From the NCBI GenBank assembly GCA_045541795.1, contig JAZQJV010000018.1:118236-182235 (forward strand): DNA of 64,000 nt, read 5' to 3'. The notes below the pieces were generated by a model. It was not told the DNA's origin and made no database searches. It saw nothing but the letters and a program-made list of their open reading frames with translations. How positions within the stretch are numbered: position 1 is the first letter of the stretch; each line of letters starts with the position of its first letter. Made by a program: the position numbers and the translations under genes. This document shows positions 6,839 to 63,368 of this stretch, piece by piece. This stretch comes from Patescibacteria group bacterium (GTDB lineage Bacteria > Patescibacteriota > Microgenomatia > UBA1400 > PJMF01).

Positions 6839-6907
6839 TATAATCAGTTTCAAATAATTGGGTGCGGATTTCCCGCCAGAAACCACCCCAAAAAGATGGG
6901 ATTACTG
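6839..6907 (+). repeat. direct repeat R2: promoter plus 5' leader of the zinc-ribbon/TM2 gene
   Basis: TATAATCA, 14 nt, then TGGGTgCGGATTTCCCGCCAGAAACCACC and the AAAAAgATgGGATtAcTG tail. The ATG at 6923 follows. Confidence 0.6.
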
Positions 6908-6922
6908 CGATGAAAGTGAAAC

Positions 6923-7256: not shown

Positions 7257-7355
7257 TCCTAACAAAGCCTAATCCTTATTACATATAATACTTTTACATT
7301 TGCGTTTTTATTATAACTACGTTATAATAACACAAACTTTAAGGAAAATATAAAC

Positions 7356-8429: not shown

Positions 8430-8438
8430 AAAGTAAAA

Positions 8439-9119: not shown

Positions 9120-9148
9120 ATGACTCTATTGCTTCCAGTAAGGAAAGT

Positions 9149-9490: not shown

Positions 9491-9502
9491 CATTCATTGT
9501 CC

Positions 9503-10165: not shown

Positions 10166-10269
10166 TACTATATTATAACACGAGCAGACATTTTGAAAGC
10201 TCAAAAATATAGCGTCCAGTTTTTACAACTTTCGCTCATTTCACCTTACCGGTATGGTATAATACCCCT

Positions 10270-11833: not shown

Positions 11834-12025
11834 ATTTTCTCCTGGTGTCGCGTTTCGGGTTTGTACCTAGGTAATTCCAATTTCCTTTTCGCATTTTTTA
11901 TGGTATAATCACGCATCTTACTCACTTTCACGGTCAGATCATCACGGTTTTGCTCGTGGAGGCGGGTGAAATCAGATCTTTGACAAGTGAAGTGAAATCA
12001 TACATCCTTAAAGGAGGAATTTCCA

Positions 12026-28250: not shown

Positions 28251-28631
28251 TTACATCCCATCTACCAATGTGGGGACACTGATGCCACTAGCATCTGTGC
28301 CGAAGGCCACCGTCAGGACGAGCTGGAAAACGGCCCAGGTGCATGCCAACACTAAAATACCGATAATGGCGGCTAAAATCTGATTACGGGCGTCTTCGAC
28401 TTTACCCTTATCGCCGCCAGAAGCGATCCAGTGAATGGCGCCCATGATGAGGTGATAAAGAGTTAGTAAAGCCGCTACCATGATAGTGAGCGTAAACACG
28501 TTATGCAAAAGCGAGCCAGCACTGGGGTTGATTTTCAGACCGCCGACGCCATTGGGATCGAGATCGTTGAGATTAAAAACCCCCGCCGAAAACAGCGGAA
28601 TACTTGCCAGTTGACCGTACTTTTTATTCAT
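28251..28631 (-). CDS. small two-TM membrane protein, VirB2/TrbC pilin-like (paralog A)
   Basis: TM1 is followed by the loop ASGGDKGKVEDARNQ and then TM2 (ILAAIIGILVLA). This aligns with the loop and TM2 of the 40090 gene (SGGNPSGFETAKNTFTYAIFGFVLA). Confidence 0.4.
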   Translation of the reverse strand: MNKKYGQLASIPLFSAGVFNLNDLDPNGVGGLKINPSAGSLLHNVFTLTIMVAALLTLYHLIMGAIHWIASGGDKGKVEDARNQILAAIIGILVLACTWAVFQLVLTVAFGTDASGISVPTLVDGM

Positions 28632-34472: not shown

Positions 34473-35684
34473 ATGAACGGGAAAATAGTGCCGGTGTTTT
34501 TGGCGGCAGTTTTACTTCTCCCCTTATGGAGGGGAGATAGGCATACCACAGGTACAGCCAGAGGGGAGGTGCAAGCAGCCAGTAGTGCCACCACCAAAAA
34601 ACTCAAAGACGTGGCGCTTGGTGAGGTTATCCAAATTGGTGTTACTAAGTACGTCAAGATCGCTGCCAATAGCTATCAGGCGGTAAAGCCGTATACCTGT
34701 GCTGACCCAGTACTCACTTATGCCGGTGCTAGCAAAAGTTTCACTTATACGGGGAACTATCAGACATTTACGGCATATGCTGGGTGCCAGTACCAGGTGG
34801 AGCTGTGGGGTGCACAGGGCAATGACAACGGTTCAGTACTTGGCGGCAGAGGCAGTTACACTGCCGGATTATTTACGCCAGACGGCACAAGCTCACTTTA
34901 CGTTTATGTCGGCCAACATCAACAGTCAGTGCTAGCAGCTTCCTTTAATTGCGGTTCTACCGGCCCCTTAAATCACGGCGGCGATGCTGTTGGCTACGGG
35001 GGCGGCGGTGCTACAGATATTCGCACCGTAAGCGGAACTTGGGATAATGAAAACTCACTGCGTTCCCGGATCATTGTCGCCGCCGGCGGTGGTGGCAGTA
35101 AAATCTGGGGCGGTTGTAATTCAGTCGGATCTCAAGAAGGGATTTTTGCTGGCGGTATTAGCGGCTATACTGGTCCAGGCTCTGGTTACGCACCCAATGC
35201 TTGCGTCGCCGGGACTGGCGGTACTCAAGTGGCTGGTGGCAGTGCCTCTACGTGTACTGGTAATGGTGGCACCAGAGCGAGTGCGGGCAGCTTTGGTAAA
35301 GGCGGCAATCCTGGCAGTACATATAGCGCCGGTGGTGGCGGCGGCTGGTATGGTGGGGGCGGCGGCACTGCTAGTCACTGTTATATTGCCTGCGGCGGTT
35401 CTGGTTCCTCTTACATCTCCGGCCACACTGGCTGCGTCGGCGTCACTTCACTAAGCGACACTACTCCCAAATCCGGCTGCACCACCGGTACGACTAATAA
35501 TGCCTGTTCGCTTAGCCCTACTGGTCTGAGCTTCACTGACACCGTGATGATTGACGGTGCTGGTTATTCCTGGACAAATGTAAAAGGATCACTTCAACAA
35601 ATGCCCAATCCTGCCGGCGGTTACTACGCGAGCGGCGTGGGTCATACCGGCAATGGTGCCGCCCGTATCACCCGCCTTAATTAA
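34473..35684 (+). CDS. secreted glycine-rich repeat protein
   Basis: Signal peptide (MNGKIVPVFLAAVLLLPLW). Beta-rich N-domain (QVELWGAQGNDNGSVLGGRGSY...LYVYVGQ) then long Gly-rich tracts (GGGGSKIWGG..., SAGGGGGWYGGGGGTAS) with scattered Cys. The promoter tgTGtTATAAT lies about 250 nt upstream. Confidence 0.45.
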   Translation: MNGKIVPVFLAAVLLLPLWRGDRHTTGTARGEVQAASSATTKKLKDVALGEVIQIGVTKYVKIAANSYQAVKPYTCADPVLTYAGASKSFTYTGNYQTFTAYAGCQYQVELWGAQGNDNGSVLGGRGSYTAGLFTPDGTSSLYVYVGQHQQSVLAASFNCGSTGPLNHGGDAVGYGGGGATDIRTVSGTWDNENSLRSRIIVAAGGGGSKIWGGCNSVGSQEGIFAGGISGYTGPGSGYAPNACVAGTGGTQVAGGSASTCTGNGGTRASAGSFGKGGNPGSTYSAGGGGGWYGGGGGTASHCYIACGGSGSSYISGHTGCVGVTSLSDTTPKSGCTTGTTNNACSLSPTGLSFTDTVMIDGAGYSWTNVKGSLQQMPNPAGGYYASGVGHTGNGAARITRLN

Positions 35685-40029: not shown

Positions 40030-40058
40030 ATTATATCACAAAAACTGCTTCTTGTCAA
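40030..40058 (-). promoter_or_regulatory. consensus promoter (TTGACA, 17-nt spacer, TGaTATAAT) for nusA-infB
   Basis: Reverse complement reads cTTGACAagaagcagtttttgtgaTATAATgtag. Confidence 0.5.
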
Positions 40059-40079
40059 GGGCTAATTTTGGTGTATAAT
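40052..40079 (+). promoter_or_regulatory. promoter (TTGTCA, 16-nt spacer, TGtTATAAT) for the pilin-like/giant-protein operon
   Basis: Shares its -35 hexamer with the divergent nusA promoter, giving a back-to-back arrangement. Confidence 0.45.
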
Positions 40080-40089: not shown

Positions 40090-40563
40090 ATGAAAAAATG
40101 GAGTGTGATCGCAGTTTTAATTTTGAGCCTGTTTGCGGGACGGCCAGCACATGCTGCCCCTTACGAAAGTTGGAAGAGTTCCAAAATGTGCACAGGCGCT
40201 AAAGACACGCTTTCTGAAGACGTTGCCACTATCGCTGGTATCGTTTGCCTGATCGCCAATGCCTTAAATGCCGTCCTGACGCTGTTTTCCTTCGTCGGCT
40301 TCCTCATGTTTGTGTATGCCAGTTTTATGCTCATGATCTCTGGCGGTAATCCCAGCGGCTTTGAAACAGCGAAAAATACCTTTACTTACGCAATTTTTGG
40401 CTTCGTGCTGGCTTTATCATCATTTGTGATCATCAATCTTATTTCTTATTACACTGGCCTCAATAGCTTCTTTGTCATCAAATTCTTGCCCAATACTATT
40501 TCTGGCAGCGCCAGCAGTGGCGGTACAGGCGGTAGCGGTACGGGAGGTACAAGCGGGCCATAA
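40090..40563 (+). CDS. VirB2/TrbC pilin-like secreted two-TM protein (paralog B) with Gly/Ser-rich tail
   Basis: Signal peptide (MKKWSVIAVLILSLFAGRPAHA). TM1, loop SGGNPSGFETAKN, TM2, and a C-terminal GSASSGGTGGSGTGGTSGP. Confidence 0.45.
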   Translation: MKKWSVIAVLILSLFAGRPAHAAPYESWKSSKMCTGAKDTLSEDVATIAGIVCLIANALNAVLTLFSFVGFLMFVYASFMLMISGGNPSGFETAKNTFTYAIFGFVLALSSFVIINLISYYTGLNSFFVIKFLPNTISGSASSGGTGGSGTGGTSGP

Positions 40564-40564
40564 T

Positions 40565-43500
40565 ATGCGCATTGATAAATTCTTACCGGCAAAACGTTGG
40601 CAAACTGTTATCATTGGGGTCAGTTTGGTTTTTGGCTGCATGATGTCGCTGCAAAATTTGCACCTAGACCTAGTTTCTGACGTCTGGAGTGCGCAGTATC
40701 AGGATGTTTATAGTCAAGTGATGAGTATTTTCCAGTCACGAGGTGAGACCATCCCTACTAATGTCGCCGCCGACATCATCGAGCGTTCTGGCGGTGATCA
40801 AAATCAAGCTATAGCTACTCTGGAAAAGTATCTCAACGTCTACAAAGCTTTGCAAGCGCGTAATCCTGATGTCTCTTCTCTAGTCATCAGTTTGATCGCC
40901 AAACAGTACCCAGATAATTACTCACAGGCCAGCACAGCTTTGTCGCAGACGGTCTCGACAGCTAAGCAGATCCAGGACTACCAAAATATAAATACTATTG
41001 CGGCGCAAATTGTGGCCGCTTTAGGGATTAATAATAGTTTCACGCAGACACTCTCAGACGCTTATGACGTCGTCAATAATGCCAGTAATATGGGCCAGCA
41101 GATGAACGTCAACAATATCGCCGCTCAAATTTTGTCTGCGCTCGATCTTACCGGAGAACTATCCTCGGGTTTTGGCAGCCAGGCTGATTTGCAAAATACG
41201 CTTCAAAGCATGACTAGATCGTCCCTCTTGCAAAGTCAAGACGCTAAGGATGTCCTCGGTGCCTTAGACATTTTCACGCCGGGTAATTTCTCGTCTGATG
41301 CCGGCAGCGTGAGTAAAATTGCCAGTGATCTTTTAGGCGGAAAACTTTCAGACACGGTCAAAAGTGTGGTAGATAAAGAAATTGCCGAAAGTTTGGGCGC
41401 GCTTAATCTAGGTAGTTTGTCTGGTCTTAGCGAAGGTAAAGGGAATTTTTCTGGCATTCTTGAGCAGGTGACATCTAAAACTGCCGGTGAAGCTGGCAAA
41501 TACAAGGATGTCTACGAAACCGTCACCAAAGGTATGAGCACTCAGGACATCGTCAAAATGGGCACCGACAAAATCAAAGACAGTATCTTAGATAATTCTA
41601 CCCTCGACCAGGAAAAAGCCGCTCAGGAAACCAAAAAAGAACTTGACCAAGAGGCAAAAAAAGCCGTAGACGAGGAAAAAAAACTACAGGATGAAGGATT
41701 GATTGATCCGTCGAGCGTACCAAGCAGTAGCCCTTCGCCTTCTTCAACTCCCGATCCTTCAGCCAGTCCTTCACCATCACCTTCCGCAAGTCCTTCTCCT
41801 GGTGCCAGCCCGTCGCCAGGGGCGAGCCCGAGTCCCTCTCCGTCTGCTAGTCCGTCACCGAGCGCTTCGCCGTCGCCGTCAGCGTCACCGAAAGCAACTG
41901 AATACATCAGAAGTGGTGCACAGGGATCCTTTATCACCGCTATCATAGATAAACTCAGAATGAGCGGCACGGCCGAAAATATTAAGGAAGGTTTTGCTGC
42001 TAAAATGATCGCCAAGAATTTATCGCTGGAGGGATATGAAGCCTATCATATCAAAACTGTCAGCCGTTTGCAGCCCTATATGAATTTTTCTCATCGCCGT
42101 AACAATGTAGATTTTAGCCAAGCCAAAGTACCCCTCATGCGCAATAGTAACTACAAACCTGAACGGCTTAATTCTGCCGAAAATTATTACGGCTATAATG
42201 CCCGGGTAGGAGTGAATGACACTGATATCCTTACTGAGTCAGCCTGGGTCGCCAAAATGTCGCAGCCTGTCAAATGCAGCCTCAAAGCCGCCAATCTTGC
42301 CTATATCGTGCGCACTTGCGACATTCTTCATGAAGACACATGCGAAGGTCTATACCTGACCGCTGATGGCAGTGAAACCATCAAAGATACTAAGATCAAA
42401 GTCCATGATTTGGCTCTTGCGGTGACAGCCATTCTCATCACTGATGGCAGCCAACGTGACGAGTTAATCAATGCGGTGGCGCTCGCTTTGGCGACGGGCA
42501 AAGGCGATCTTAGCGGCATCATGGGACAAGTAACCAATATTATTAATAGTATTGGCGGTGAGAATTCAGATGTACTGTCGCGTTTGCTGGCTATGGCTTC
42601 AGATAAAGTCATGGAACCTATCTATGATAACCGGATTCCTTTTTGTGAGACACTTTATAATACTCCAGCCACAGCGGCTACGGATGAGACGGGCTTACTG
42701 CTAGAAATGGCCAAAGGCAACATCCAAGCGGAGGATATGGGCAAAATTTATCTGCGCTGGGCGATGGAAAAATTGGACTTTTACCTGGCACGTGAATACC
42801 GCACTGCATACCTAGTGCAAACTACAAGAATCTGCCCGGTACGTCGGCAATTTATCTGCTCTAAATCCTCACCCGTATATAAGTATGCACCAGCACCCAC
42901 AGGCACCTGCTTAGTACAACTCCCCTGTATACCTGGTATCACCCCAGATCAGGTGCGTGTATATCCATTCAAAATCCCAGATCTTTTCACCAATAAGAAT
43001 TTTTGCAAAACGTCTGATCTAGAATATCCTGGGCTCTTGAATGACGTCAAATGTGAGCCCTCTGAGCAATTCCAATATGCAGACATGATACAAGAATATC
43101 ACGATCCGGCACTTTTACAAAAAAATTTCCTCATGAATATGGAGCAGATCCGCGCTGAACGTGAAGAGTTTTTAGCAAAACGCAAAACTCGCGCCCAGCA
43201 CTCTGCCGAAGCCTGTACGGCCAATAGTGCTACCACTCTTGCCAAAATGCAAGAGGCCGACTTAACATGCACCGACAAAAATGTGCTTAGCGGTGATCTG
43301 ATTGACTGTGAAAACTGCAATGGCGAAGCCAGACGAGTCAAAGCGGCTCTAGTGAAAGTCATCAACGGTGCCATCAAACATGGCGAACTTTACAAAATCG
43401 AAAATCCCAACGGCAACTCGCCGGGTACTGATGATGTCAGCGGCGGGCTTAGTAGTTCCGCCATTACCACTTCTGCCGTGAATCCGCTCGAACCAGCTAT

Positions 43501-44137
43501 CACTGATGTCAACTATTTTAATGATTTCTGCTTATGTCGGGAAAAAATGTTCCTTTGGGTCCCGTGGTTTGCCTACGCTAAACTTGATTACTTTGTCGTC
43601 GAGCCGATCAGTGATGAGGTGGAAAGTATTGAGGAGCACATTGTCTCGCCGTTTTTCCGCACTAGTCAATACCAGCAATTCCTCAAAAATGACAGCCGTC
43701 AAAATCGTAAAATCCAAGTCACTGGCGCCAAGAGTAACCTGAGTGACATCCCGATTTGGCTGCCTGCTGGCGGGCCGATCAGTAATGTCTTTTTGCAGCA
43801 GCAAGTTTTATACAATCAAGATCAAGACATTTATAAGAACTTTAAAAAATGCGTTTCCGCCGCCTCATATTTTGAGTCACAGTGCATGGGTGCGGATAGC
43901 GGCAAAGAGGATGAGGCTTTTGACGAGGCTAAAAGTCAGTGCATATTGCGTGCGGAAGCTGGCTGTACTCGTGGCTGTGGCGAGAACGGAGTGATTTCGC
44001 TTACCTATGGTAGCGAGGACGGTAAGACTATTATTGACTGTGAATGCGGCAATACTGGCGGTGAAGACAGTAGCGGGCCAAGAAATTATCATTATGAATG
44101 TGAAAATTCCACCGATACTGAATGGGATGACGTCTAA
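40565..44137 (+). CDS. giant (1190-aa) membrane-anchored surface protein with PS-rich linker and Cys-rich C-terminal domain
   Basis: The ATG overlaps the stop of the pilin-like gene (TAATATG). N-terminal TM (VIIGVSLVFGCMMSL). Long Ser/Gln/Ala-rich region. (SPSPSA)n linker at about aa 380-450. C-terminal 750 aa has more than 30 Cys (CENCNGE, CECGNTGGED). Confidence 0.5.
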   Translation: MRIDKFLPAKRWQTVIIGVSLVFGCMMSLQNLHLDLVSDVWSAQYQDVYSQVMSIFQSRGETIPTNVAADIIERSGGDQNQAIATLEKYLNVYKALQARNPDVSSLVISLIAKQYPDNYSQASTALSQTVSTAKQIQDYQNINTIAAQIVAALGINNSFTQTLSDAYDVVNNASNMGQQMNVNNIAAQILSALDLTGELSSGFGSQADLQNTLQSMTRSSLLQSQDAKDVLGALDIFTPGNFSSDAGSVSKIASDLLGGKLSDTVKSVVDKEIAESLGALNLGSLSGLSEGKGNFSGILEQVTSKTAGEAGKYKDVYETVTKGMSTQDIVKMGTDKIKDSILDNSTLDQEKAAQETKKELDQEAKKAVDEEKKLQDEGLIDPSSVPSSSPSPSSTPDPSASPSPSPSASPSPGASPSPGASPSPSPSASPSPSASPSPSASPKATEYIRSGAQGSFITAIIDKLRMSGTAENIKEGFAAKMIAKNLSLEGYEAYHIKTVSRLQPYMNFSHRRNNVDFSQAKVPLMRNSNYKPERLNSAENYYGYNARVGVNDTDILTESAWVAKMSQPVKCSLKAANLAYIVRTCDILHEDTCEGLYLTADGSETIKDTKIKVHDLALAVTAILITDGSQRDELINAVALALATGKGDLSGIMGQVTNIINSIGGENSDVLSRLLAMASDKVMEPIYDNRIPFCETLYNTPATAATDETGLLLEMAKGNIQAEDMGKIYLRWAMEKLDFYLAREYRTAYLVQTTRICPVRRQFICSKSSPVYKYAPAPTGTCLVQLPCIPGITPDQVRVYPFKIPDLFTNKNFCKTSDLEYPGLLNDVKCEPSEQFQYADMIQEYHDPALLQKNFLMNMEQIRAEREEFLAKRKTRAQHSAEACTANSATTLAKMQEADLTCTDKNVLSGDLIDCENCNGEARRVKAALVKVINGAIKHGELYKIENPNGNSPGTDDVSGGLSSSAITTSAVNPLEPAITDVNYFNDFCLCREKMFLWVPWFAYAKLDYFVVEPISDEVESIEEHIVSPFFRTSQYQQFLKNDSRQNRKIQVTGAKSNLSDIPIWLPAGGPISNVFLQQQVLYNQDQDIYKNFKKCVSAASYFESQCMGADSGKEDEAFDEAKSQCILRAEAGCTRGCGENGVISLTYGSEDGKTIIDCECGNTGGEDSSGPRNYHYECENSTDTEWDDV
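41700..41895 (+). repeat. imperfect tandem codon-level repeats encoding the (S/A/G)PSPS linker
   Basis: Reiterated agtcc(t/g)tc(a/g)cc(a/g)... units. Coding low-complexity sequence, not a CRISPR array. Confidence 0.5.
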
Positions 44138-45725
44138 ATGGCGCCAACTTCAATCTTGGCGCTGCTGGCTGCCATACCTGGTTTTGGCACTAGCGATGGC
44201 GATCGCCATCGCCCTCAAAAAGGATTATTACATTGATGAAATTTACAGCTATGGTCTCGCCAATAGTCTGACGCCGCAAATAGATATTAGCAATCCTGGT
44301 ATTTTCCGGCCGGCTTGGTCAGTGTTTCGCCCGTACGTGACCGCTTCCTGGTGGCACGTGCTTGATTTACCTTCTGTGTGGCAAAATCAGGCCGCTGATG
44401 TCCATCCTCCATTTTACTATTTGTTGCTGCATGTGGTTTCCTCACTTGCGCCAGGTATTTTCTCGCGTGGCTTTGCGGGCTTGATTAATATCATTTCTGC
44501 TCTAGTGTGCCTTTATTTTGTGGGGAGTATCTTGCGTCGTCTGGAAGTCAGCCCAGCTGCTCGGCATTGGATCAGCCTGTGTCTCTCGCTCCATCCAGCC
44601 ATCATTGGCGCTGGTAGCTTTTTGCGGATGTACTTGTTGCTGTCAGCACTCCTTTTGGCCATTACTGATCAAACGCTTGCCCTCATCCAAAATCCTGTGT
44701 CAATCAAATCCTGGTATCGCACTCCGCTTACGTGGCTTGTCACCGCCGCTTGCCTTACCCATTACTATGCATACGTCTATCTGATTGGACTTGTCGGTGC
44801 CGCTCTCATTTTGTTTTGGCGGCGTGGTCAAAAACAAGCCTGTCGCCATTTGTTGGCTTGTGCCGTTGCTGGCGTCGCCAGCGCCTTAATACTATTCCCG
44901 TATGCGCTGCGCCATGTATTTTTTGCTGACCGCGGGACTCAGTCATGGAGCAACTTTTTGCAGCTGTCTGCCTTTCGCGCGCGTTTAGATCTTTATACGA
45001 ATTTGCTCAATAGACAGCTTTTTGGCGGTTTTGGCTGGTTGCTTATTGGTATGATCGGTATTGCTTTGGCGGTTTATCTTTGGCAAGGAAGACGCCGGCT
45101 CCAAGCGAGTGTAAATAAACTTGGTCTTTGGCTGGTGGTGACGGCGCCAGCGTGTGCTTACCTGATTCTTGTTGGTATTTCTTCAGTCTTTACTGTGGAC
45201 CGGTACATGCAGCCGCTGTATTTCCCCGTTATCACCATTGTGTACGGCAGTTTGGCACTACTAATTTGGCGCCATGCGCCTTCTCGTTGGCGATCAGGAC
45301 TATTAATAGCAGTACTCAGCGTGTGTACTGTTTTTTCTTGGCGCGTACAAGAATGGCCCTATCTTTATTGGGAGAGAGAGCAAGAAATTGCCAGAGCACG
45401 CGCTCACGAGGGCTTAGATTGCCTCTTCCTGTATCAAGATCGTTGGACCGCTCTTTACTATTTTGAGGAATTGCGTCATTACCGTTCTGTCACCTTTATC
45501 CCTGTAGAGGCCAATGACCGCATCCGTTATTATATGGAAGTCATCAAGCACGCCCATATAGATGAATTAGTAGTCGCTTTTGGTTTGGGTGATGACGATC
45601 CTCGTGAACCAGAAGCAGTTCTTAATAAATTCCTTGATATATCGGGATTTTTAGAGTACAAGCAAACAATTTGGCAGCATAGCCCCAAATCAGCAAGTTA
45701 TCTAGTGGGCAGTAAAGTCGACTGA
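44127..45725 (+). CDS. GT-C-type membrane glycosyltransferase (ArnT/PMT family-39-like)
   Basis: First-loop DEIYSYGLANS and HPPFYYLLLH motifs. About 11 TM segments. Start overlaps the giant gene's stop (ATGACGTCTAAATGG). Confidence 0.55.
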   Translation: MTSKWRQLQSWRCWLPYLVLALAMAIAIALKKDYYIDEIYSYGLANSLTPQIDISNPGIFRPAWSVFRPYVTASWWHVLDLPSVWQNQAADVHPPFYYLLLHVVSSLAPGIFSRGFAGLINIISALVCLYFVGSILRRLEVSPAARHWISLCLSLHPAIIGAGSFLRMYLLLSALLLAITDQTLALIQNPVSIKSWYRTPLTWLVTAACLTHYYAYVYLIGLVGAALILFWRRGQKQACRHLLACAVAGVASALILFPYALRHVFFADRGTQSWSNFLQLSAFRARLDLYTNLLNRQLFGGFGWLLIGMIGIALAVYLWQGRRRLQASVNKLGLWLVVTAPACAYLILVGISSVFTVDRYMQPLYFPVITIVYGSLALLIWRHAPSRWRSGLLIAVLSVCTVFSWRVQEWPYLYWEREQEIARARAHEGLDCLFLYQDRWTALYYFEELRHYRSVTFIPVEANDRIRYYMEVIKHAHIDELVVAFGLGDDDPREPEAVLNKFLDISGFLEYKQTIWQHSPKSASYLVGSKVD

Positions 45726-47348
45726 TTATTTTAGCCGCCACACTTGTAGTGTTGGCGCATCTGCCTGTGGTCGCTCATACTCCTGTACCAATGCGACGGG
45801 CTTGATGTCCTCATCCAAATCCAGCCGGTGCGAATTAGCGACCAGTAAGACCTCGTCATATTCATCCCAGTTTGGCTGGGGAGAAAGTTTATCAAAATTG
45901 TGTATCGGCGGCGCACCCAAACCTAGGACTTTGATGTTGTCACGCACACTACTTTTCCATAAATATATCTGCAAACCGTCGGGTAATGTCCCCACAAAAC
46001 CTTCAGTAAGAACCAACAGCTTCTTACTCGCCGCCAACTCTTGTAAATATTCGGCCGTTTGCTTGATCCCATGTCCGGAAGACCAGTCCCAAAATAATTG
46101 CTGTCTGTCGGCTGGCAGTAGCGGCAGTTTAAATGGATTGGTATGAATCCGCCAGCTCCAATAATGGCCAGTAACTAATACAATTAAAATTAACGCGAGT
46201 TTAAAATTTATCAATTCAATCCGACGAATCAGGGATAAGCACACCACAAAGCTGACGATAATAAACGGTACCACCGGTAGAAAATAACGCGGGTAGACGA
46301 CTTTACCCAGCATGATGATAGGCAAAGCATAGGCGAATCCTGAGATTAAAATCAAAAGCGGTAACGCTGTCCGTGAACGCCGGCGACAAACATAAATCAA
46401 AGCCATACACAAAGTAGTGACAGTCATCGTGAGTCCAGTATAATTTGTAATTACGCGGGCAAAGTTGAGCACATTGTAAGTTAAAATCGCAAACGGTTGA
46501 CGCAAAAAGTCACCCACGCTATATAAAAAGTCACCACCGCGACTAAATAGCATCGGGAATGCGGGGCTGATTTTTAAGACAGCAAAAATTATCACTCCGA
46601 TCGCACTAATGACAAAAAGTGGCATTAACTGCGAGGCAAGCGAGCGCCAAAAACTTTCTCGGTTTTGTTTGTTTTTTATCTTTGACCACTGCGCGTGGTA
46701 AAACGGCACAGTGGCTAAAACTGGCGCCAACAAAAGACAGGAAAACTTTGTCCACATCGCCAGTCCCCACGAGGTGCCAGCAGCCAGCGTCCACCAGTAC
46801 CAACTGTTTTTGTCCTTGTCTCGGCTCAAATATGCGCCAGTCGCTTGATAAGTAAGGATGAACGTGAGACTGATGAAAAAAGACACGGCGCTGTCCATCA
46901 GTGCCAAACGATTAGTCAGCATTAATCCAGGCGAGAAAATTACCAGCAACCCTGCTAAAAGTTGATAACGCCTTTTATGGACGAAAACTTTGACCATATA
47001 AATCGTCACGAGCAATTGACCCAGACCAAAAAGAATCGCCGCCACCCGTCCTGCCACCAGCGGATCGGCAAAAATTTTGATCAAAGGTATCGCCGTCCAA
47101 ATGACCAGCGGCGTTTTACCATCATTGAGAGCAAAAAAACTATACTGCTGCCAATCAGAAATAGCCAGCTGCGACCAATAAATATAAATTGCTTCATCCA
47201 CAAAAACAGGGATGGATTGCAGTTTGGCCAGCCGCTGCCAACAAAAGATTACAATGATTATTCCTAAAAGATAATAGTACCAATACCGAGCTAAATGAAT
47301 GCTAGCCTTGAGCGTTTTTTTCAATTTTGTATACCAATCCCACCACAT
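45726..47348 (-). CDS. GT-C-type membrane glycosyltransferase (ArnT/PMT family-39-like)
   Basis: VFVDEAIYIYWSQ, DGKTPLVIW and R..A.LFG... blocks typical of the family-39/83 N-terminus. Polytopic. Confidence 0.6.
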   Translation of the reverse strand: MWWDWYTKLKKTLKASIHLARYWYYYLLGIIIVIFCWQRLAKLQSIPVFVDEAIYIYWSQLAISDWQQYSFFALNDGKTPLVIWTAIPLIKIFADPLVAGRVAAILFGLGQLLVTIYMVKVFVHKRRYQLLAGLLVIFSPGLMLTNRLALMDSAVSFFISLTFILTYQATGAYLSRDKDKNSWYWWTLAAGTSWGLAMWTKFSCLLLAPVLATVPFYHAQWSKIKNKQNRESFWRSLASQLMPLFVISAIGVIIFAVLKISPAFPMLFSRGGDFLYSVGDFLRQPFAILTYNVLNFARVITNYTGLTMTVTTLCMALIYVCRRRSRTALPLLILISGFAYALPIIMLGKVVYPRYFLPVVPFIIVSFVVCLSLIRRIELINFKLALILIVLVTGHYWSWRIHTNPFKLPLLPADRQQLFWDWSSGHGIKQTAEYLQELAASKKLLVLTEGFVGTLPDGLQIYLWKSSVRDNIKVLGLGAPPIHNFDKLSPQPNWDEYDEVLLVANSHRLDLDEDIKPVALVQEYERPQADAPTLQVWRLK

Positions 47349-58049: not shown

Positions 58050-59054
58050 TTAGACAAAAACTGCCCACTGCTTGGGGTTTTGCCCGGCCACAATCTGACA
58101 GCTAATTTCCAGCGCTCCGTAAACTGGGGATTTTTCCGGGATGATGAGCACGGCTGGCAGTCCTGAGTCTGCTATCATTTTGGCAAATTCCTCCCGCCAG
58201 CAAAGCAAGAAACTCCCGCCCGCCACCAAGTCAAATTGCGTCTCCGCCAGCCCCAATTTGTAAGCCAACGCCTGCACATGAGTGAACAATTGCCCCAGAC
58301 AATAATTGACGATGTGGATGGCTACCTGGTCACCAGCTAGGGCCTGCGTACTGCATACCTTAGCCAAAGCCGCGATCTCATCTTTGCCCGGGACACGGCT
58401 ATATATGACGTCTTTAAGCTCTGCCAAATTGTCCACTTCAAAATGCCGTAAAACTGGTTTTGTCAGCGTTGTCTCCATGCCGCGCCCATCGAGTGCTCGT
58501 GCCACCGCGCGCAAAGTCAGTCTACCGGCGTCAAAGCCGCTGCCTTCGTCACTCAAAAGGTAATCCAGTCCGCCCATGCGCGACCATTGACCCTCACTGC
58601 TCACGCCGATACAATTACTGCCCGTCCCGCCGATAATTACCATTGCTGGCCGCTTGCTGGTCCCGGCTGTCAGCGCCGCCACCGCGTCATTAATGATCAC
58701 GATTTTTTTAATTGGCCACTCACGCAAGGTCTCGCCCAAAACTTGCTCTGCTCGCCGCAGATCCTGCTTGGTATCCAGCCCCGCAGTCGCGATCACCGCT
58801 AATTCTATTTCTTCATCCAGTGTCTGCTGGACAAACAACGCTGGTGGCACTTGATCGCTGTCGGTGTTTGTCGCTTCTTTTTGTAAAAGTTGACGCACGC
58901 CTTCGCGCGCATTATAGCCGGCCACGCCTACGCTTACCGCTGATACATTGACACTACCACCACTGACAATTTTTTCTATCCTGCCGCTGGCGTCTGCGAG
59001 TAAGTATTCCGATCGGCTCGCGCCGCCATCTATAGCAATGATCTTGCCGCTCAC
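58050..59054 (-). CDS. BadF/BadG/BcrA/BcrD-type ATPase, N-acetylglucosamine kinase-like
   Basis: Sugar-kinase ATPase motifs KIIAIDGGASRS and LSDEGSGF. GTG start overlaps the GH57 stop (GTGA). Confidence 0.6.
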   Translation of the reverse strand: MSGKIIAIDGGASRSEYLLADASGRIEKIVSGGSVNVSAVSVGVAGYNAREGVRQLLQKEATNTDSDQVPPALFVQQTLDEEIELAVIATAGLDTKQDLRRAEQVLGETLREWPIKKIVIINDAVAALTAGTSKRPAMVIIGGTGSNCIGVSSEGQWSRMGGLDYLLSDEGSGFDAGRLTLRAVARALDGRGMETTLTKPVLRHFEVDNLAELKDVIYSRVPGKDEIAALAKVCSTQALAGDQVAIHIVNYCLGQLFTHVQALAYKLGLAETQFDLVAGGSFLLCWREEFAKMIADSGLPAVLIIPEKSPVYGALEISCQIVAGQNPKQWAVFV

Positions 59055-60274
59055 GCGCACCTTTCTTGCAGATCTGCCAGTACGATACAATAGCGCCGGT
59101 AAGCCTCATACGGCGAATCATAAGCACTAAAGTAAGCGTGCACATCACCGTCAGCAAAGTATTTGGTGCACATATAATAAAAATGATCACTCGTCTGCAA
59201 ACGACGCCAGTCAGTCAGCAAACGCTCATCTTTTTTGCGCCACACCGCTTTTTCTAAGTCATAAATTTTCCGGAGGGTGTCCCATTGCAAATCATTTGAC
59301 CGCCACGCGGATAAGTCGCGGTCTTCATCTGCCCACGAGATCGGCTCATCCACATTATAAACTGGTAAAGTTTTCACCCACGCTGCCCAGTCTTTTTTGG
59401 TCCGGTATTTTTTGGGCGTCAGTTCATCGCGCGGATTGACGAAATTAATGTGCTCATCATTGCAGCCCAGCTCTACAAACTTTTCAAAAAAAGGAAAGAT
59501 ACCCGTGCTCGCCCACTGATGTTCGCCAAAAGTTTCAAAGTCCATGAAAAGATTAATAATTTCTTCATCGCGGTAGTCATGTAGCCAACGGCAATATTTG
59601 TCTGCGGTCAATGGCCACTCACTCCAGCTTTTTTGCGAAAAACGGAAAGCAATATCATCACTTAAAGGAGCATGCTTGAGCAACATCGGCAGTGCTGGGT
59701 CGCAATTTGCCCGGTAAACCTGTGTTTTTGGCCGGCCGGCCATTAGCCTGTCCACTCCTTCCACCAAAATCCCGCGGAAACCCAAATTAGCCACCTGCCA
59801 GCCGATATAATTACTGTAAATCATTTCGGTATTGCGGAAAACCACCGGTTTGACGTCAAAGAGTTCCCGCAGTAAATCCTTGTGCATTTTTACCTGACGT
59901 TTAAATTCCGTCTCTGAGTAAAGCGCTGACAAAGAGTGATAATAGTTTTCGCCCACAATTTCTACTTGACCGCGATGCTGGCTCAAGCGATAAAGCAAAT
60001 CCAAAACGTCCTGACCCCAAGCTTGACATTGCTCCAAAAATACTCCCGAGCACGAAAACGCAAATTTAAAATCCGGATATTTTTCCACTAGTTTTAAAAG
60101 TAAGCCCAGCATCGGCCGGTAGCTTTTTTCGGCCACCTTCAAAAAGACCTCATGATTTTGGTCGCGGCAATCATCACAAAAATAACGATGCCGCTCATCC
60201 CCGAGATCCGTCACCGCAAAATTTGTCAACCGGTAAGGCTGATGGAGCAAAAAATAAAAACAAACTTTCGGCAT
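59051..60274 (-). CDS. glycoside hydrolase family 57 (alpha-glucan acting)
   Basis: N-terminal CFYFLLHQPYRL (HQP motif), GQVEIVGENYYH and DFETFGEHQW blocks characteristic of GH57. Confidence 0.65.
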   Translation of the reverse strand: MPKVCFYFLLHQPYRLTNFAVTDLGDERHRYFCDDCRDQNHEVFLKVAEKSYRPMLGLLLKLVEKYPDFKFAFSCSGVFLEQCQAWGQDVLDLLYRLSQHRGQVEIVGENYYHSLSALYSETEFKRQVKMHKDLLRELFDVKPVVFRNTEMIYSNYIGWQVANLGFRGILVEGVDRLMAGRPKTQVYRANCDPALPMLLKHAPLSDDIAFRFSQKSWSEWPLTADKYCRWLHDYRDEEIINLFMDFETFGEHQWASTGIFPFFEKFVELGCNDEHINFVNPRDELTPKKYRTKKDWAAWVKTLPVYNVDEPISWADEDRDLSAWRSNDLQWDTLRKIYDLEKAVWRKKDERLLTDWRRLQTSDHFYYMCTKYFADGDVHAYFSAYDSPYEAYRRYCIVLADLQERCA

Positions 60275-61557
60275 TAACTCGTTTTCCTTTTTTTGGTCGT
60301 CACCTTACGTTTACGGGATGTTTTTTTCTTAGCGTCACTGGCCACTTTTTGATATACTTTTTCAATTTTGGCCGCCGACTTTTTCCAGGTGTTTTGGTCT
60401 AGGTGCGCCAACTGATCGCTCACTACTTGTTCGCGGTAAGCGTGATCATTGATCAAATGTAACACTTCCGCCGCCATCGCGTCTACGTCCCAAAAATCAA
60501 ATTTCGGGCTGCCGGTCATCACTTCTACCACTCCAGAATTTTTGGAAGCAATCACCGGCGTGTGTGCCATGGCCGCCTCCGCCGCCGACAGCCCAAAAGG
60601 CTCACTTACACTCGGCATCACAAACACATCCGCTCGCCGCAAAATTGCTTGCTGCGCTCCGCCGCGCACAAATCCCGAAAACAGCAAATTGGCAGACAAA
60701 GATTTACTGGCGGTGCTCAAAAGTAAATGCTGGTACATGTCGCCCATGCCCGAAACAATAAACAAGATGTCTGGCCGCACCGTCATCAGTTTTTCGGCCA
60801 ACTGTACGAAGTAATCCGGGCCTTTTTGCATCGTCAGCCGCCCCATGAACACCACTACCGGCCGGCCGGTGGCAAATACTTTCTCGCCGCCGCTCATTTT
60901 TTGTAAGAAACGCACCACGCCGTTGTGCACTACGTCGATTTTGCAAGGATCAATCCCGTACTGCTCTACCAACACCCGTTTGGTGTAATAGCTCACGGCT
61001 AACACTCTGTCGGCCAGCCGCATTCCGGTCACCTCACACTGTCCGATATAAGTAGCTAAGTCTGCTCCACCACTGCGGTCATATTCGGTAGAATGGATAT
61101 GAGCAATGAAAGGCTTGCCGAGTTTTTGTTTGATCCGGATCGCCGCTGGCATACTCATCCAGTCGTGGGCATGCACCACATCAAACTCATCAATGTGGGC
61201 CAGGGCATAATCAAAAACTTTGGCCGCGTATTCTTCTACTCGGTCTTCCATCCATGATCCCGGGCGCGGGCAAAATTCAGTCTCAGCACTATCGGTATTT
61301 TTGCTATTGGCGTAAGCATTAAAAGGCGGGCGAGAATTTGAGTCTTCCGGCAAGAAATCAGCCCAACTACTATTATAACAGTCCACCACATCGATGTTTT
61401 CCGGCACATCCTGGGCGATGTAGGGCAGAGTAAACTTTACGCTCACACCATCAGCATGCAGCGCTTGTGCCATCTGCGCACAGGCAGTGCCCAAACCGCC
61501 ACTATTGTGTGGTGGTAACTCCCAGCCGATCATTAATACTCTTGGTTTTTCTTGCAC
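60274..61557 (-). CDS. GT-B glycosyltransferase, glycogen/alpha-glucan synthase-like
   Basis: N-terminal KPRVLMIGWELPPHNSGGLGTACAQMA (compare the glycogen synthase K.GGL motif). C-terminal GT4/GT5-type fold (SEPFGLSAAEAAMAHTPVIAS). Confidence 0.55.
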   Translation of the reverse strand: MQEKPRVLMIGWELPPHNSGGLGTACAQMAQALHADGVSVKFTLPYIAQDVPENIDVVDCYNSSWADFLPEDSNSRPPFNAYANSKNTDSAETEFCPRPGSWMEDRVEEYAAKVFDYALAHIDEFDVVHAHDWMSMPAAIRIKQKLGKPFIAHIHSTEYDRSGGADLATYIGQCEVTGMRLADRVLAVSYYTKRVLVEQYGIDPCKIDVVHNGVVRFLQKMSGGEKVFATGRPVVVFMGRLTMQKGPDYFVQLAEKLMTVRPDILFIVSGMGDMYQHLLLSTASKSLSANLLFSGFVRGGAQQAILRRADVFVMPSVSEPFGLSAAEAAMAHTPVIASKNSGVVEVMTGSPKFDFWDVDAMAAEVLHLINDHAYREQVVSDQLAHLDQNTWKKSAAKIEKVYQKVASDAKKKTSRKRKVTTKKRKTS

Positions 61558-61697
61558 GGACTTATGTTATCACGAATTGGGATGTCCTGCAAGTAGATAT
61601 TTTATACTCATAAGGGGTCAGATTTTTATAGGTCCTAAACTTAAAATATTATAGGGTATGCAAATTTAGGCCTATAATATTAAATCAAAATTGACTC

Positions 61698-61726
61698 TTG
61701 ACAAATGACCCATAATGTGGTATAAT
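61698..61726 (+). promoter_or_regulatory. consensus promoter repeat copy 2 (TTGACA-aatgacccataatgtgg-TATAAT) upstream of the thioredoxin-like gene
   Basis: As copy 1. A second TTGACA, 16-nt spacer, TGgTAAAAT promoter follows at about 61779-61806. Confidence 0.55.
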
Positions 61727-61830
61727 AGGTAATTATGAAAGGTAAACAGGTGATAAAAAACAGTCAAAAATACTCGCGAATGTGGTCGGCGTGGATTTTG
61801 GGGGTTGACAATATGTGAATTGATGGTAAA

Positions 61831-62334
61831 ATGCACACCATGGAAGAAAGATATACACCCATCATTACAATTAGCGTCGTGATTGCAGCTTTGTTTGCGA
61901 CTTTGGTCTTTGTCCGGCTACATCGTACCCCGCTCGCCACCCCAGAGACATATAATGAAGTTTCACCCAGTGCTGAGCTGGCATTAGATTTTAATGCTCA
62001 CCGTCATTATATCTTTAGTCGTGACGACTGCATCCACTGTCAAAACCTAGAAAGCTACCTTGATAGTCATGAAGGCAGCCGTTCTCGTCTCGACATCGAG
62101 ATAGCCAATCTCTCTCAAACGGCCACTGCCAACTACTTCTATAATAAAGCCGTGGAATTTAGTGAAGTTTGCGGCCAGGATTCCAGCCAGTTGGGTACAC
62201 CGTTCCTCTATATCAATGATGAGAGTGTGCCCATGAGTGAACGTTGCATCGCTGGCGATACGCCGATCATGGCTTACTTTGACGGTTTGCTCGCGCCAGA
62301 GACAGCCAGTATGCCTGCTGCCGATAATCAATGA
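61831..62334 (+). CDS. membrane-anchored thioredoxin/glutaredoxin-fold protein (CxxC)
   Basis: N-terminal TM (IITISVVIAALFATLVFV) then YIFSRDDCIHCQNLESYL (CxxC redox motif), with GTPFLYIND downstream. Confidence 0.45.
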   Translation: MHTMEERYTPIITISVVIAALFATLVFVRLHRTPLATPETYNEVSPSAELALDFNAHRHYIFSRDDCIHCQNLESYLDSHEGSRSRLDIEIANLSQTATANYFYNKAVEFSEVCGQDSSQLGTPFLYINDESVPMSERCIAGDTPIMAYFDGLLAPETASMPAADNQ

Positions 62335-62381
62335 CTATTAGTGAATTAGCCGTGGTAAGTAGTGAGTAGAAATGGGGTTTT

Positions 62382-63368
62382 GTGAAAAAAGTGATCTGGG
62401 CAGCATTGATTTTAGGTTTGGTCGTAGTTTTTGGCGGATTCTTTGGTCTGGTGTGGTATGTGCAAGCTCTATTTGCTCCCATCAATCCTGCCGACCAGAC
62501 AGAAATTCACTATGTGGTGGCAAAGGGTAGCTCACTGGGGGCGGTGGCCGCTGATCTGGAAGCTCAAGGCATTGTCAAGAGTGCGGAAGGCTTGCGGCTT
62601 TATGCCCGGATTTTCCATGTGGGCGATAGCGTCCAGGCTGGAGAGCATATCTTGCATCGCAGTGATGATGCCGCCGGGATTATCTCGAGCCTAGAAATGC
62701 CACCCGCTCAGGTGACGTTTACCATTTTGCCCGGGTGGCGGCGTGAAGAAATCGCTGCTTATCTGAGCACTGCTGGTTTGAGCGAATTTGATGACAAGCA
62801 GTTTTTGGCGCTCACTGCCGATCTGGAAGGTCAGCTCATGCCCGAAACCTACAAAATTGCTCCCTTGAGTGATACAGCGACCATCGTGGATGTGCTCCAT
62901 GGACAATTTGTACACGACATCCTAGAAAACCCCGAGCTGCAGCCACAGTTTGCCGCCTCCAGCTATAGTCAAAATGAAATCATTACTCTCGCCTCCTTGC
63001 TCCAGCGCGAGGGCAAATCTCTATCCGAAATGAAAATGATCGCCGGGATCTTGTATTCCCGTCTGGAAGACCATTATCCGCTTCAGCTGTGCGCTAGTGC
63101 GCAATACGCCACGGGTCAAGACAGTGAGAGTGGCAAATGGTGGGAACCGCCCACCCTGGCCGATACTCAGTTTGACTCACCATACAATACTTACGTCAAC
63201 AAGGGGCTGCCACCAGGGCCGATCAGTACTGTCAGCGTGGATGCCGTGCGCGCCGCTCTGGATCCCACGCCGAGTGACTATTATTACTATTTACATGATA
63301 GTGATGGGCAGATTCACTATGCCACCACGCTTGATGGTCACGAACGTAATAAAAGTTTATATTTATAG
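62382..63368 (+). CDS. mltG: endolytic murein transglycosylase MltG (YceG family)
   Basis: N-terminal TM. YceG blocks including NTYVNKGLPPGPISTVSVDAVRAALDP and YYYYLHDSDGQIHYA. Confidence 0.7.
   Translation: MKKVIWAALILGLVVVFGGFFGLVWYVQALFAPINPADQTEIHYVVAKGSSLGAVAADLEAQGIVKSAEGLRLYARIFHVGDSVQAGEHILHRSDDAAGIISSLEMPPAQVTFTILPGWRREEIAAYLSTAGLSEFDDKQFLALTADLEGQLMPETYKIAPLSDTATIVDVLHGQFVHDILENPELQPQFAASSYSQNEIITLASLLQREGKSLSEMKMIAGILYSRLEDHYPLQLCASAQYATGQDSESGKWWEPPTLADTQFDSPYNTYVNKGLPPGPISTVSVDAVRAALDPTPSDYYYYLHDSDGQIHYATTLDGHERNKSLYL

Follow-up and report, generated by a model that had tools for sequence, protein, structure and literature searches.

The gene pair and its surroundings

The window, a 64-kb stretch of DNA from a Microgenomatia-like Patescibacterium, one of the ultrasmall bacteria of the CPR/Patescibacteria, contains on its + strand a gene for a VirB2-like pilin (157 aa, 40090..40563), the "partner" pilin, followed one base later by a gene for an exported, cysteine-rich protein of 1190 residues (40565..44137 including the stop codon), here called the giant. 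Both ORFs are present as given in the preliminary description, and an orthologue with 56% identity covers the entire length of the giant. The two genes had been thought to share an overlapping stop and start. Direct reading of the junction TAA-T-ATG (40561..40567, + strand) corrects this to a 1-nt spacer: the sequence is CCA TAA T ATG, with the stop at 40561-40563, a lone T at 40564 and the ATG at 40565. Tight coupling of the two genes is plausible. A consensus scan revealed a promoter-like site, TTGTCA-16-TATAAT (40052..40079, + strand), that ends 10 nt 5' of the pilin ATG, and a divergent perfect TTGACA-17-TATAAT oriented toward nusA; both are pattern matches only. No terminator-like site was found on the + strand from the pilin to the end of the giant.

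A + strand gene for a multi-spanning membrane protein of ~532 aa (44127..45725) overlaps the giant at its end; the start of this gene is uncertain (44007, 44094 or 44127), and its product has no match in Pfam or PDB. The gene may form part of one operon with the giant; an orthologue (56% identity) lies behind the giant only in L001, and the tie between the two is weak. Convergent to it, on the - strand, lies a gene for a PMT-like GT-C glycosyltransferase of 540 aa (45726..47348; PF02366 PMT, E=3.5e-14); only the window, L001 and L002 have it next to the giant. The nusA-infB genes adjoin the pilin-giant pair in all loci with a visible flank.

Both genes of the pair are real and under purifying selection. 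Comparison with the near-identical strain L088 gives dN/dS values of 0.05 (pilin) and 0.11 (N-domain of the giant), against 0.09 for IF-2. An interruption of the large ORF, which would have spoken against the preliminary description, was not found: the frame is intact in the window and kept in full in the orthologues L001 and L002. The contig of strain L088 departs from the giant ORF just before the linker described below, about 250 nt from the contig end, which is read as an assembly break.

The partner pilin

The small gene had been described as encoding a pilin of the VirB2 type, and the comparison with known families agrees with this. The protein scores 26.0 bits against PF18895 (T4SS_pilin), slightly below the gathering cut-off of 26.6, with E=1e-5 and coverage of 67 of the 71 profile positions, and it weakly matches NF045849, a family of pilin-like conjugal transfer proteins. 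Its orthologues are likewise annotated with PF18895, some of them without the mark "weak". A signal peptide (aa 1-22, ...AHA|AP) is followed by a conserved pair of cysteines, Cys34 and Cys53, by two hydrophobic helices (about aa 51-80 and 97-124, in hydrophobic segments at about aa 44-86 and 96-124) either side of a short charged loop, SGGNPSGFETAKN, and by a C-terminal tail rich in Gly and Ser. Small size, a signal peptide and two helices joined by a short polar loop make up the VirB2/TrbC-type topology. In an alignment of 11 orthologues, which are 44-70% identical, the signal peptide, the two helices and the loop are kept.

Architecture of the giant

The giant comprises, in order, a signal or anchor segment, an alpha-solenoid that is modeled with confidence, a long helix, a Pro/Ser-rich (PS) linker, a Cys-rich head and a small Cys-rich tail. 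The anchor-stalk-head layout proposed earlier was borne out by the comparison of relatives insofar as an N-domain, a variable spacer and a conserved head recur. The sole hydrophobic segment (aa 14-32; 40604..40660, + strand) is preceded by four basic residues, and the N-terminus MRIDKFL(P/S)AKRW is kept in strain L088. The segment is ambiguous and could be a Sec signal peptide or else a signal anchor that is not cleaved. Thus, of the term "membrane-anchored" the single N-terminal hydrophobic segment stands and the anchor is not established, since the cleavage site of the giant itself is ambiguous and 10 of the 11 other family members with N-termini that were read begin with Sec signal peptides of the canonical, cleavable type (such as VGA|Q, SEA|Q, AKA|A and VEA|Q).

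For residues 33-325 (40661..41539, + strand) AlphaFold2 predicts an alpha-solenoid of about six repeats, each composed of a long and a short helix (mean pLDDT 74.9; >85 over model residues 10-220). Homologues of this N-domain occur in P0001, L002, L083, P0026 and P0027 (E 1e-27 to 1e-68). A Foldseek comparison of the model with the PDB yielded nothing significant, the best hits (E 0.4) being generic helical repeats. A Lys/Glu-rich segment (aa 326-385; 41540..41719, + strand) follows, predicted to form for the most part one helix of ~50 residues (aa 326-376; model residues 294-344) that runs into the Ser/Pro/Ala linker (aa 386-442; 41720..41890, + strand; PSSSPSPSSTPDPSASPSPSPSASPSPGASPSPGASPSPSPSASPSPSASPSPSASP). 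The repeat character of the linker noted earlier is evident, but with 57 residues the linker is of moderate length rather than long, and at the DNA level it is an imperfect repeat (68% matches) without a clean tandem repeat. Neither its sequence nor its length is conserved among orthologues. Some relatives have a PS or TP linker as the spacer; in L083, P0026 and P0027, 300-600 residues of GDLxxL-type repeats take its place.

The conserved Cys-rich core of the head comprises ~680 residues (aa 446-1125; 41900..43939, + strand) and contains 16 Cys as well as the motifs PLLRN..RLNSAE.YYGY, YRTAY.VQ..RICP, PDQVRIYPFK.PDLFTNKNFC, INC.NC, AK..YW.V.P and GAGPI.N.F..QQ.LY; a clade-specific helical insertion lies at about head residues 180-280. 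HMM domain limits and the alignment delimit a C-terminal tail with 8 Cys (aa 1126-1190; 43940..44134, + strand), modeled with a helix and a small beta-sheet (pLDDT about 62-80), which is found only in the subclade of the window (window, P0001, P0025, L002). Head core and tail together thus hold 24 of the 25 Cys of the giant, fewer than the more than 30 attributed to the head in the preliminary description. All 24 are kept in the 56%-identical orthologue, and about 11 are conserved in the head throughout the family, as are the invariant polar residues D350, R353, N365, N367, Y376, Y400, D402, R428 and N489 of the head. Searches of the complete giant and 14 head sequences with Pfam (E<=1) and NCBIfam identified no known domain in the C-terminal ~745 aa, as the earlier reading had supposed, and no match to a known intracellular enzyme. 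The same databases yielded no recognizable binding or enzyme domain in the giant of the window, and in particular no lytic transglycosylase, CHAP/NlpC-P60 or M23 domain at E<=1. The structure model of the head is of low confidence (pLDDT 58.9). The head would appear to be an uncharacterized extracytoplasmic module of the disulfide type; an extracytoplasmic location is deduced from the family-wide signal peptides and the even number (24) of conserved Cys.

Pairing, modularity and pilin arrays

The pilin-giant pair is conserved among relatives, the survey of which had been proposed at the outset. At all 14 loci the gene directly 3' of the partner pilin belongs to the head family (window, L001, L002, L006, L007, L082, L083, L084, L085, L086/87, L104, L105, L106 and, with the N-domain only, L088). 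In the 12 relatives with both gene ends, the spacing ranges from a 4-nt overlap to 62 nt; the gap called in L106 is 138 nt, and an in-frame start with a signal peptide exists upstream of the called start. The partner pilin is found at related nusA loci of only 4 of 80 GTDB species representatives, and the head family occurs in very few genomes. Identities amount to 26-55% among the heads versus 44-70% among the pilins. The head defines a new, narrowly distributed and previously undescribed family; the window protein, which served as the query and seed of the head HMMs, has the core motifs and conserved Cys, the Sec signal and the position 3' of the partner pilin that characterize it.

The pairing is invariant and the partner protein is modular. 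In stalked forms the N-domain is followed by a PS linker or by GDLxxL repeats. In sister lineages the head is fused to SLT, SLT_3, 3D, SpoIID, M23, esterase, C39_2 or nuclease-type Exo_endo_phos domains, with a catalytic domain of the lytic transglycosylase, CHAP/NlpC-P60 or M23 type present in P0028-P0032, P0034-P0036 and L006. The window protein, L001, L002, L083, P0026 and P0027 have no hydrolase domain, yet head and pairing are retained. Fusion of the head to peptidoglycan hydrolases, esterases and a nuclease therefore argues that the family has at least as much to do with attack on or remodeling of cell walls as with adhesion.

More distant JGI metagenome loci (L090-L093, L096, L099) contain arrays of 4 to 11 pilins that are closed by a pilin of the partner type (116-136 bits), the other pilins being divergent (20-47 bits). 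Behind the array-closing pilin follows a Cys-rich protein of 1000-1630 aa that matches the head HMM as a distant homologue (E 1e-13 to 1e-21), and 4 of the 5 array-associated head-family proteins examined have a clear signal peptide at the N-terminus. A 1125-aa protein of L097/98 matches the head HMM after one iteration (E 7e-10). In L102 the pilin array is located 3.4 kb from VirB4, and in L091 and L096 SpoIID genes are divergent from the arrays.

Relation to type IV secretion systems

The type IV secretion pilus of Patescibacteria is poorly understood. VirB2-like pilins, including arrays of them, occur widely in Patescibacteria, above all in Microgenomatia (Quinonero-Coronel et al. 2025, PMC12102498), the arrays are tied to T4SS loci (PMC12102498, PMC10633639), and in S. 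epibionticum pilin array and T4SS are essential (Wang et al. 2023, PMC10633639; PMC12857230). The small gene resembles these pilins in its near-threshold PF18895 match, signal peptide, two helices and Microgenomatia-like lineage. Unlike the arrays, the window contains a single pilin beside nusA-infB, with no VirB4, VirB6 or T4CP found within 64 kb. The Pfam scan of 44 ORFs of the window, i.e. the pilin, the giant, their neighbors and most ORFs of at least 200 aa, leaving aside the ORFs at 59051-63368 and most short ones, gave no match to a T4SS ATPase or channel, VirB3, VirB4, VirB6 or T4CP. The tie of the module to a T4SS is therefore indirect. A conserved large partner behind a specific terminal pilin subtype is not described in PMC12102498 or PMC10633639.

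TraN of F-like conjugation systems is a large, Sec-exported, Cys-rich, T4SS-associated adhesin for mating-pair stabilization, the variable part of which selects the partner cell. The giant resembles F-type TraN as a functional analogue only: Pfam scans of the full giant and 14 head sequences (E<=1) yielded no TraN match, and TraN resides in the outer membrane of diderms, whereas the organism of the window is a monoderm. With the tip subunits VirB5/TraC the giant shares, according to the earlier proposal, the idea of an accessory protein presented on a VirB2 filament. A VirB5-type tip protein was rejected; there is no Pfam match, the N-domain is a repeat solenoid without a significant PDB match in Foldseek, to VirB5 or to any other known protein associated with pili, and VirB5, a helical bundle of ~220 residues, differs entirely in size and architecture. 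PrgB-type LPXTG adhesins are likewise large surface proteins in which a stalk bears a functional domain at its distal end. A sortase-anchored adhesin was also rejected, since the sole hydrophobic segment is N-terminal and the acidic C-terminus ...ENSTDTEWDDV has no sorting signal; Pfam showed no adhesin domains in the giant, and no PrgB-like adhesins were detected in Patescibacteria (PMC12102498).

Parallels are also found among the hydrolases. Monoderm T4SSs require multidomain peptidoglycan hydrolases, such as TraG of pIP501 and PrgK, the latter with LytM, SLT and CHAP domains, and a recognizable VirB1 is absent from many Patescibacterial genomes (PMC12102498). Like PrgK (pCF10), TraG (pIP501) and CwlT (ICEBs1), the sister head proteins are exported, associated with a pilin or T4SS, and combine M23, SLT, 3D or SpoIID domains. 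The window protein differs in having no hydrolase domain, and the novel head that unifies the family is absent from PrgK, TraG and CwlT.

Possible function of the module

The head family lies behind the pilin subtype in every relative examined and is therefore a strong candidate for an accessory of the T4SS pilus. We tentatively favor, with somewhat less than even confidence, a model in which the locus, with its one pilin and one partner, represents the minimal form of a conserved Microgenomatia surface module that serves such a pilus. In this module one VirB2-like pilin subtype always precedes a large, Sec-exported, disulfide-rich protein bearing the head. Both proteins would be produced from a single near-leaderless transcript and would cooperate on the cell surface as an accessory to the T4SS-type pilus of Patescibacteria. 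The partner pilin may hold the large protein, acting as an adaptor or terminal subunit, and the head may be a common module that engages a target in the cell envelope by binding or catalysis. In sister lineages the head would bring peptidoglycan hydrolases, esterases or a nuclease to this target; in the lineage of the window the alpha-solenoid, the long helix and the PS linker would keep it at a distance. The absence of enzymes and the presence of solenoid, helix and linker therefore suggest a non-catalytic binding or spacer variant. Its target would most plausibly be the cell wall of a host at the site of contact, so that the giant may have a role in host binding.

In Agrobacterium, virB1 adjoins virB2, and the C-terminal product of VirB1 promotes T-pilus formation. 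By this precedent the module could serve the envelope of its own cell, with the head protein as a VirB1/PrgK-like factor that opens or organizes the peptidoglycan for assembly of the pilin through the wall and with stalked, enzyme-less forms like the window protein as scaffolds or regulators. We consider this rather unlikely, although most of the enzyme-armed members have lytic transglycosylase-type or M23 domains, SpoIID genes flank pilin arrays, monoderm T4SSs depend on multidomain hydrolases, and many Patescibacterial genomes have no recognizable VirB1 (PMC12102498). Arguing against it are the six enzyme-less members named above, which keep head and pairing; the esterase, C39-like and endonuclease/exonuclease/phosphatase domains, for which remodeling of the own wall has no need; and stalks with as many as about 500-600 repeat residues, which suggest a reach past the own wall.

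Still less probable is that the head proteins are secreted effectors or toxins against host or competitor cells, similar to polymorphic toxins. The conserved head would then serve for delivery, for targeting or as a catalytic domain of a novel kind, with the exchanged enzyme domains as payload, and the pilin would be co-inherited only because it is part of the same attack apparatus. The conserved core with variable N- and C-terminal enzymatic modules, nuclease and esterases included, would fit, as would the much faster evolution of the head family than of the pilin, and the invariant polar residues of the head are compatible with an active site. However, no conserved immunity-like gene lies downstream, where the neighbors vary by locus, the proteins use Sec signal peptides and not a T4SS coupling-protein signal, the giant is under purifying rather than diversifying selection between close strains (dN/dS 0.11), and the window variant has no payload domain.

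In the classic holin-endolysin arrangement, a small membrane protein gene lies directly upstream of a wall hydrolase gene. That the "pilin" is no filament subunit but, in a similar manner, a small bitopic or two-helix membrane protein dedicated to the exported giant as its receptor, chaperone or holin-like gate, with a likeness to PF18895 in topology only, agrees with the score below the gathering threshold, the lack of T4SS genes found nearby in the window and the strict one-to-one pairing with a single pilin subtype even among many other pilins, but is very doubtful: the partner pilin shows clear homology to the pilins of tandem arrays that are tied to T4SS loci (PMC12102498, PMC10633639), its orthologues show the VirB2/TrbC-type signal peptide, helices and charged loop, and the giants, with Sec signal peptides of their own, have no need of a holin.

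Pairing of a VirB2-like pilin with the head family

The strongest result of the analysis is the pairing of two genes. In all 14 loci in which the upstream flank is visible, a partner-type pilin gene lies directly 5' of a gene of the head family, which encodes the Cys-rich region (core residues 446-1125) conserved in the giant, the 1190-residue protein of the window. Both genes are on the same strand, and in loci that contain both gene ends the spacing varies between an overlap of 4 nt and a gap of 62 nt. At one locus (L106) the called gap is 138 nt, but an in-frame start and a signal peptide are found further upstream. The pair usually adjoins nusA-infB, and the genes further 3' of it are not conserved across the loci. 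A mobile-element or prophage origin of the pair was rejected in view of the adjacency of nusA-infB in all relatives.

In the window, the pilin is encoded by a 157-codon ORF at 40090-40563 (+) and the giant by a 1190-codon ORF (+) that begins with the ATG at 40565 and ends with the stop at 44135-44137. Re-reading of the ORFs from the sequence reproduced the coordinates, sizes and general layout of the preliminary description but not the stop-start overlap that it had reported: the junction reads CCA-TAA-T-ATG, with a 1-base spacer and zero overlap. A pattern scan revealed a promoter-like TTGTCA-16-TATAAT, the end of which is 10 nt 5' of the pilin's ATG, and no terminator-like site was found on the + strand between pilin and giant or directly after the giant. 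A third ORF, for a multi-spanning membrane protein, shares bases with the 3' end of the giant. In a comparison with the near-identical strain L088, the NusA protein of which is 100% identical to that of the window, dN/dS was 0.05 for the pilin, 0.11 for the N-domain of the giant and 0.09 for IF-2, indicative of ordinary purifying selection on both genes of the pair. Two full-length orthologues of the giant (L001, 56% identity; L002, about 52%) keep the frame and all 24 Cys residues of the head. The observation in the preliminary description is thus partly confirmed, and its interpretation, a tip adhesin on a VirB2-like filament, is partly supported. The conserved, previously undescribed pilin-partner family with its informative domain swaps goes further than that description could, whereas tip location and host binding would be conjecture and no T4SS was detected nearby.

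Additional loci were retrieved from JGI metagenomes with the pilin alignment as query. In these loci (L090-L103), VirB2-like pilin genes stand in tandem arrays of 4 to 11. In L090-L093, L096 and L099 a partner-type pilin (116-136 bits) closes the array of far more divergent pilins (20-47 bits) and is directly followed by a protein of 1000-1630 residues with 20-30 Cys. A clear signal peptide is present in four of the five large proteins with examined N-termini. They match the head HMM with E values of 1e-13 to 1e-21, the 1125-residue protein of L097/98 doing so after one iteration (E 7e-10), and no Pfam domains were found in them. The exported proteins downstream in L100-L103 (500-750 aa) could be matched neither to the head family nor to a Pfam domain, and may represent further unrecognised pilin-partner families.

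The partner pilin

The partner pilin has two hydrophobic helices with a short charged loop between them, together with a signal peptide, a conserved pair of Cys and a Gly/Ser tail. Its score against PF18895 (T4SS_pilin) is 26.0 bits, the gathering score being 26.6, and it weakly matches a mycoplasma ICE pilin-like family of NCBIfam. Orthologues are 44-70% identical and the pilin is therefore far better conserved than the giant. In one relative (L007, 9219-9848, -) the pilin core is preceded by an extra N-terminal Cys-rich module and the pilin's own PS linker, which includes SEPPPSTSPIPSASPTPSSSPTPSASPTPGG. PS linkers are thus a general spacer device of the lineage, and the N-terminus of the pilin can carry cargo. 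The window contains a second, divergent VirB2-like pilin ORF at 28251-28631 (-), of 126 aa and with two hydrophobic helices and the loop ASGGDKGKVEDARN, which matches the partner-pilin HMM with E=5e-8. This ORF is solitary, with a ComF-like gene on one side and a response-regulator gene on the other.

The giant and its surroundings

The giant contains 25 Cys, 24 of them beyond residue 570, and not the more than 30 initially counted; its Ser/Pro/Ala repeat, described as a long linker, spans only residues 386-442. The single hydrophobic segment, residues 14-32, had been taken for an anchor. As textbook cleavable signal peptides occur in 10 of the 11 other family members with N-termini that were read, the segment may instead be a signal peptide. 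The sequence VFGC at residues 22-25 fits a lipobox, yet Cys25 is absent from the orthologues P0001 and L002, and the lipoprotein reading was rejected.

Neither Pfam nor NCBIfam returned a credible match to the giant, and an exact-sequence look-up retrieved no record. The model of the N-domain is good (overall pLDDT 74.9; above 85 for about 210 residues) and shows a solenoid in which each repeat pairs a long with a short helix, after which comes one helix of about 50 residues; a Foldseek comparison with the PDB yielded generic helical repeats and no significant neighbour. In the head core, which is about 650 residues long, about 11 Cys and several invariant polar residues are shared across the family; members of the window subclade also have a helical insertion and, at the C-terminus, a tail with 8 Cys. 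No Pfam model covers the head and no structural relative was detected, and its own model, obtained from 14 sequences, is poor (pLDDT 58.9), such that the head is regarded as an unclassified domain.

Two large polytopic membrane proteins are encoded at the 3' end of the giant (44007-47348). The first, of about 532 aa, has a YYIDEIYSYG loop motif and is unclassified, with no family match in Pfam or the PDB; the second, encoded convergently, is a PMT-like GT-C glycosyltransferase that contains FVDEAIYIYW. L001 keeps both genes and L002 only the PMT-like one. Taken with the PS linker, this arrangement makes it an attractive idea, noted here only as an aside, that GT-C enzymes encoded next to the giant O-glycosylate the linker; counting against it are the restriction of glycosyltransferase neighbours to the three closest genomes and the lack of a family match for the 532-aa protein. 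The contig of L088 departs from the giant ORF at ...DQEAKKAV (6180-6474), just 5' of the PS linker, and its last 250 nt or so are unrelated sequence. An assembly break or chimera at the repeat is the probable cause, a real rearrangement being the lesser possibility. L088, the sole near-identical contig, is therefore uninformative on variation in PS-linker length.

Architectures of the head family

An exhaustive HMMER search of 1.84 billion representative proteins with the head (residues 446-1190 plus an orthologue) identified only 15 proteins. In word-indexed searches, the full giant retrieved mostly low-complexity matches to the PS linker, with the orthologue P0001 as the sole real one, a 16-sequence head alignment retrieved two proteins and the N-domain a single fragment, from the near-identical strain. 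No match was obtained in a profile search of genome contigs with clade-specific patterns from a 2-sequence head alignment, nor in a metagenome scan with a 14-sequence head alignment. The productive handles for finding loci were nusA and then the pilin.

Two architectures are seen among the HMMER relatives and the loci recovered via nusA. Stalked forms (window, L001, L002, L083, P0026, P0027) consist of a signal peptide, an N-domain of about 300 residues, a spacer and the head. Their N-domains are homologous (E 1e-27 to 1e-68). As spacer, the proteins of the window, L001 and L002 have a PS or TP linker, and those of the other three have GDLxxL-type repeats that extend over 300-600 residues. In enzyme-armed forms (P0028-P0032, P0034-P0036, L006) the head comes after the signal peptide, in some cases with an M23 or endonuclease/exonuclease/phosphatase domain in between, and is itself followed by SLT, SLT_3, 3D, SpoIID, esterase or C39-like domains. 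In P0034 an esterase sits inside the head. The closest functional analogues of the enzyme-armed forms are PrgK/VirB1-type hydrolases and those of the stalked forms are TraN- or VirB5-type contact proteins; the window giant itself was not recognised as a member of any of these types. VirB2-like pilins and pilin arrays are documented in Patescibacteria, notably Microgenomatia and Saccharimonadia, as are VirB1-like hydrolases that carry M23 or LysM domains (PMC12102498). In the accessible text of published accounts of Patescibacterial T4SS pilins, a large conserved partner behind a specific pilin subtype is not described. The pilin is hence of an already known type; what appears to be new is the partner family, with its modular logic and the strictness of its coupling to the pilin.

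Possible functions

The domain swaps of the head family, as read from sequence, point to peptidoglycan and other envelope substrates. In the model that we favour, with a likelihood approaching even, the pair is a surface module accessory to a T4SS-type pilus. In it the adaptor would be the partner pilin and the head would be the common module engaging the envelope, and the window giant would be an enzyme-less binding variant with a spacer. A VirB4 gene is located 3.4 kb from one related pilin array and SpoIID genes flank two. VirB4, VirB6 and coupling-protein genes were not detected by Pfam among 44 window ORFs, which comprised the pair's neighbours and most ORFs of at least 200 aa, leaving out ORFs 59051-63368 and most short ORFs. 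It is less likely, at perhaps one chance in a few, that the family remodels the cell's own wall for pilus biogenesis; the hydrolase domains of most armed forms speak for such a role, and the lack of one in the window giant and the other stalked forms speaks against it. It is improbable that the giant is a secreted effector in which the head would serve for targeting or catalysis; against this, the family members have Sec signal peptides and not a T4SS coupling-protein signal. Least probable is that the 'pilin' is a non-filament membrane partner; its Pfam score falls just short of the gathering score, but its subtype closes arrays of VirB2-like pilins. What the analysis establishes is that the genes are real, their topology, how the family is distributed, the pairing and the domain swaps; localisation, interaction and target are inferred.

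According to reviews, the function of Patescibacterial T4SS and VirB2-like pilins is 'completely unknown', with a conduit to the host being speculated, and both are essential in the sole Patescibacterium studied genetically (PMC11665869, PMC12857230); for S. epibionticum, the essentiality of the pilin array and T4SS is likewise stated in PMC10633639. In a more far-reaching proposal, which we consider doubtful, the head family would be the missing distal component of the Patescibacterial VirB2-like pilus. An adaptor or terminal pilin would display the disulfide-locked giant, whose head, a new fold, would dock onto the pilin, and swappable modules (long stalks, lytic transglycosylases, M23 peptidase, esterases, nuclease) would set the action on the host envelope. 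The apparatus would then engage or breach the host wall and be a host-wall device, not a conjugation pilus. The head family provides concrete candidates for what the Patescibacterial pilus carries or needs, and the pilin-partner gene pair a marker for such loci in Microgenomatia.

Genomic context

A NusA scan of GTDB genomes groups the organism with Patescibacteria of the Microgenomates/'Pacebacteria' type; a MAG from goat jejunum is its closest relative (82% NusA identity). The setting of the pair is chromosomal. The NusA and IF-2 genes lie upstream of the pair and are divergent from it. The other Pfam-matched neighbours serve mostly housekeeping or envelope functions (primase, LepA, enolase, phosphoglycerate mutase, RpoA, DNA ligase, glycosyltransferases). 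A 403-aa protein encoded at 34473-35684 strongly matches the ALK/LTK glycine-rich domain (PF12810, E=7e-34), which is unusual for a CPR bacterium; its gene adjoins that of a 405-aa protein without a family. At 11950-14049 the GC content reaches a local peak of 54% in the gene of a 699-aa GH3 (NagZ-like) glycoside hydrolase, which adjoins a GT87 glycosyltransferase gene. Positions 1-10200 have a GC content of 34-38%, versus about 47% elsewhere, and are dense in defence and nuclease genes. They encode two YhcG/DUF1016 PDDEXK nucleases (1736-2824; 5609-6736, -), a Schlafen AlbA_2 protein (2846-4273), a Shedu SduA homologue (4424-5602, -), a staphylococcal-nuclease plus Excalibur protein (7356-8429) and an Ltp-type surface lipoprotein (8439-9119), and the region has the appearance of a defence island that a CPR genome acquired.
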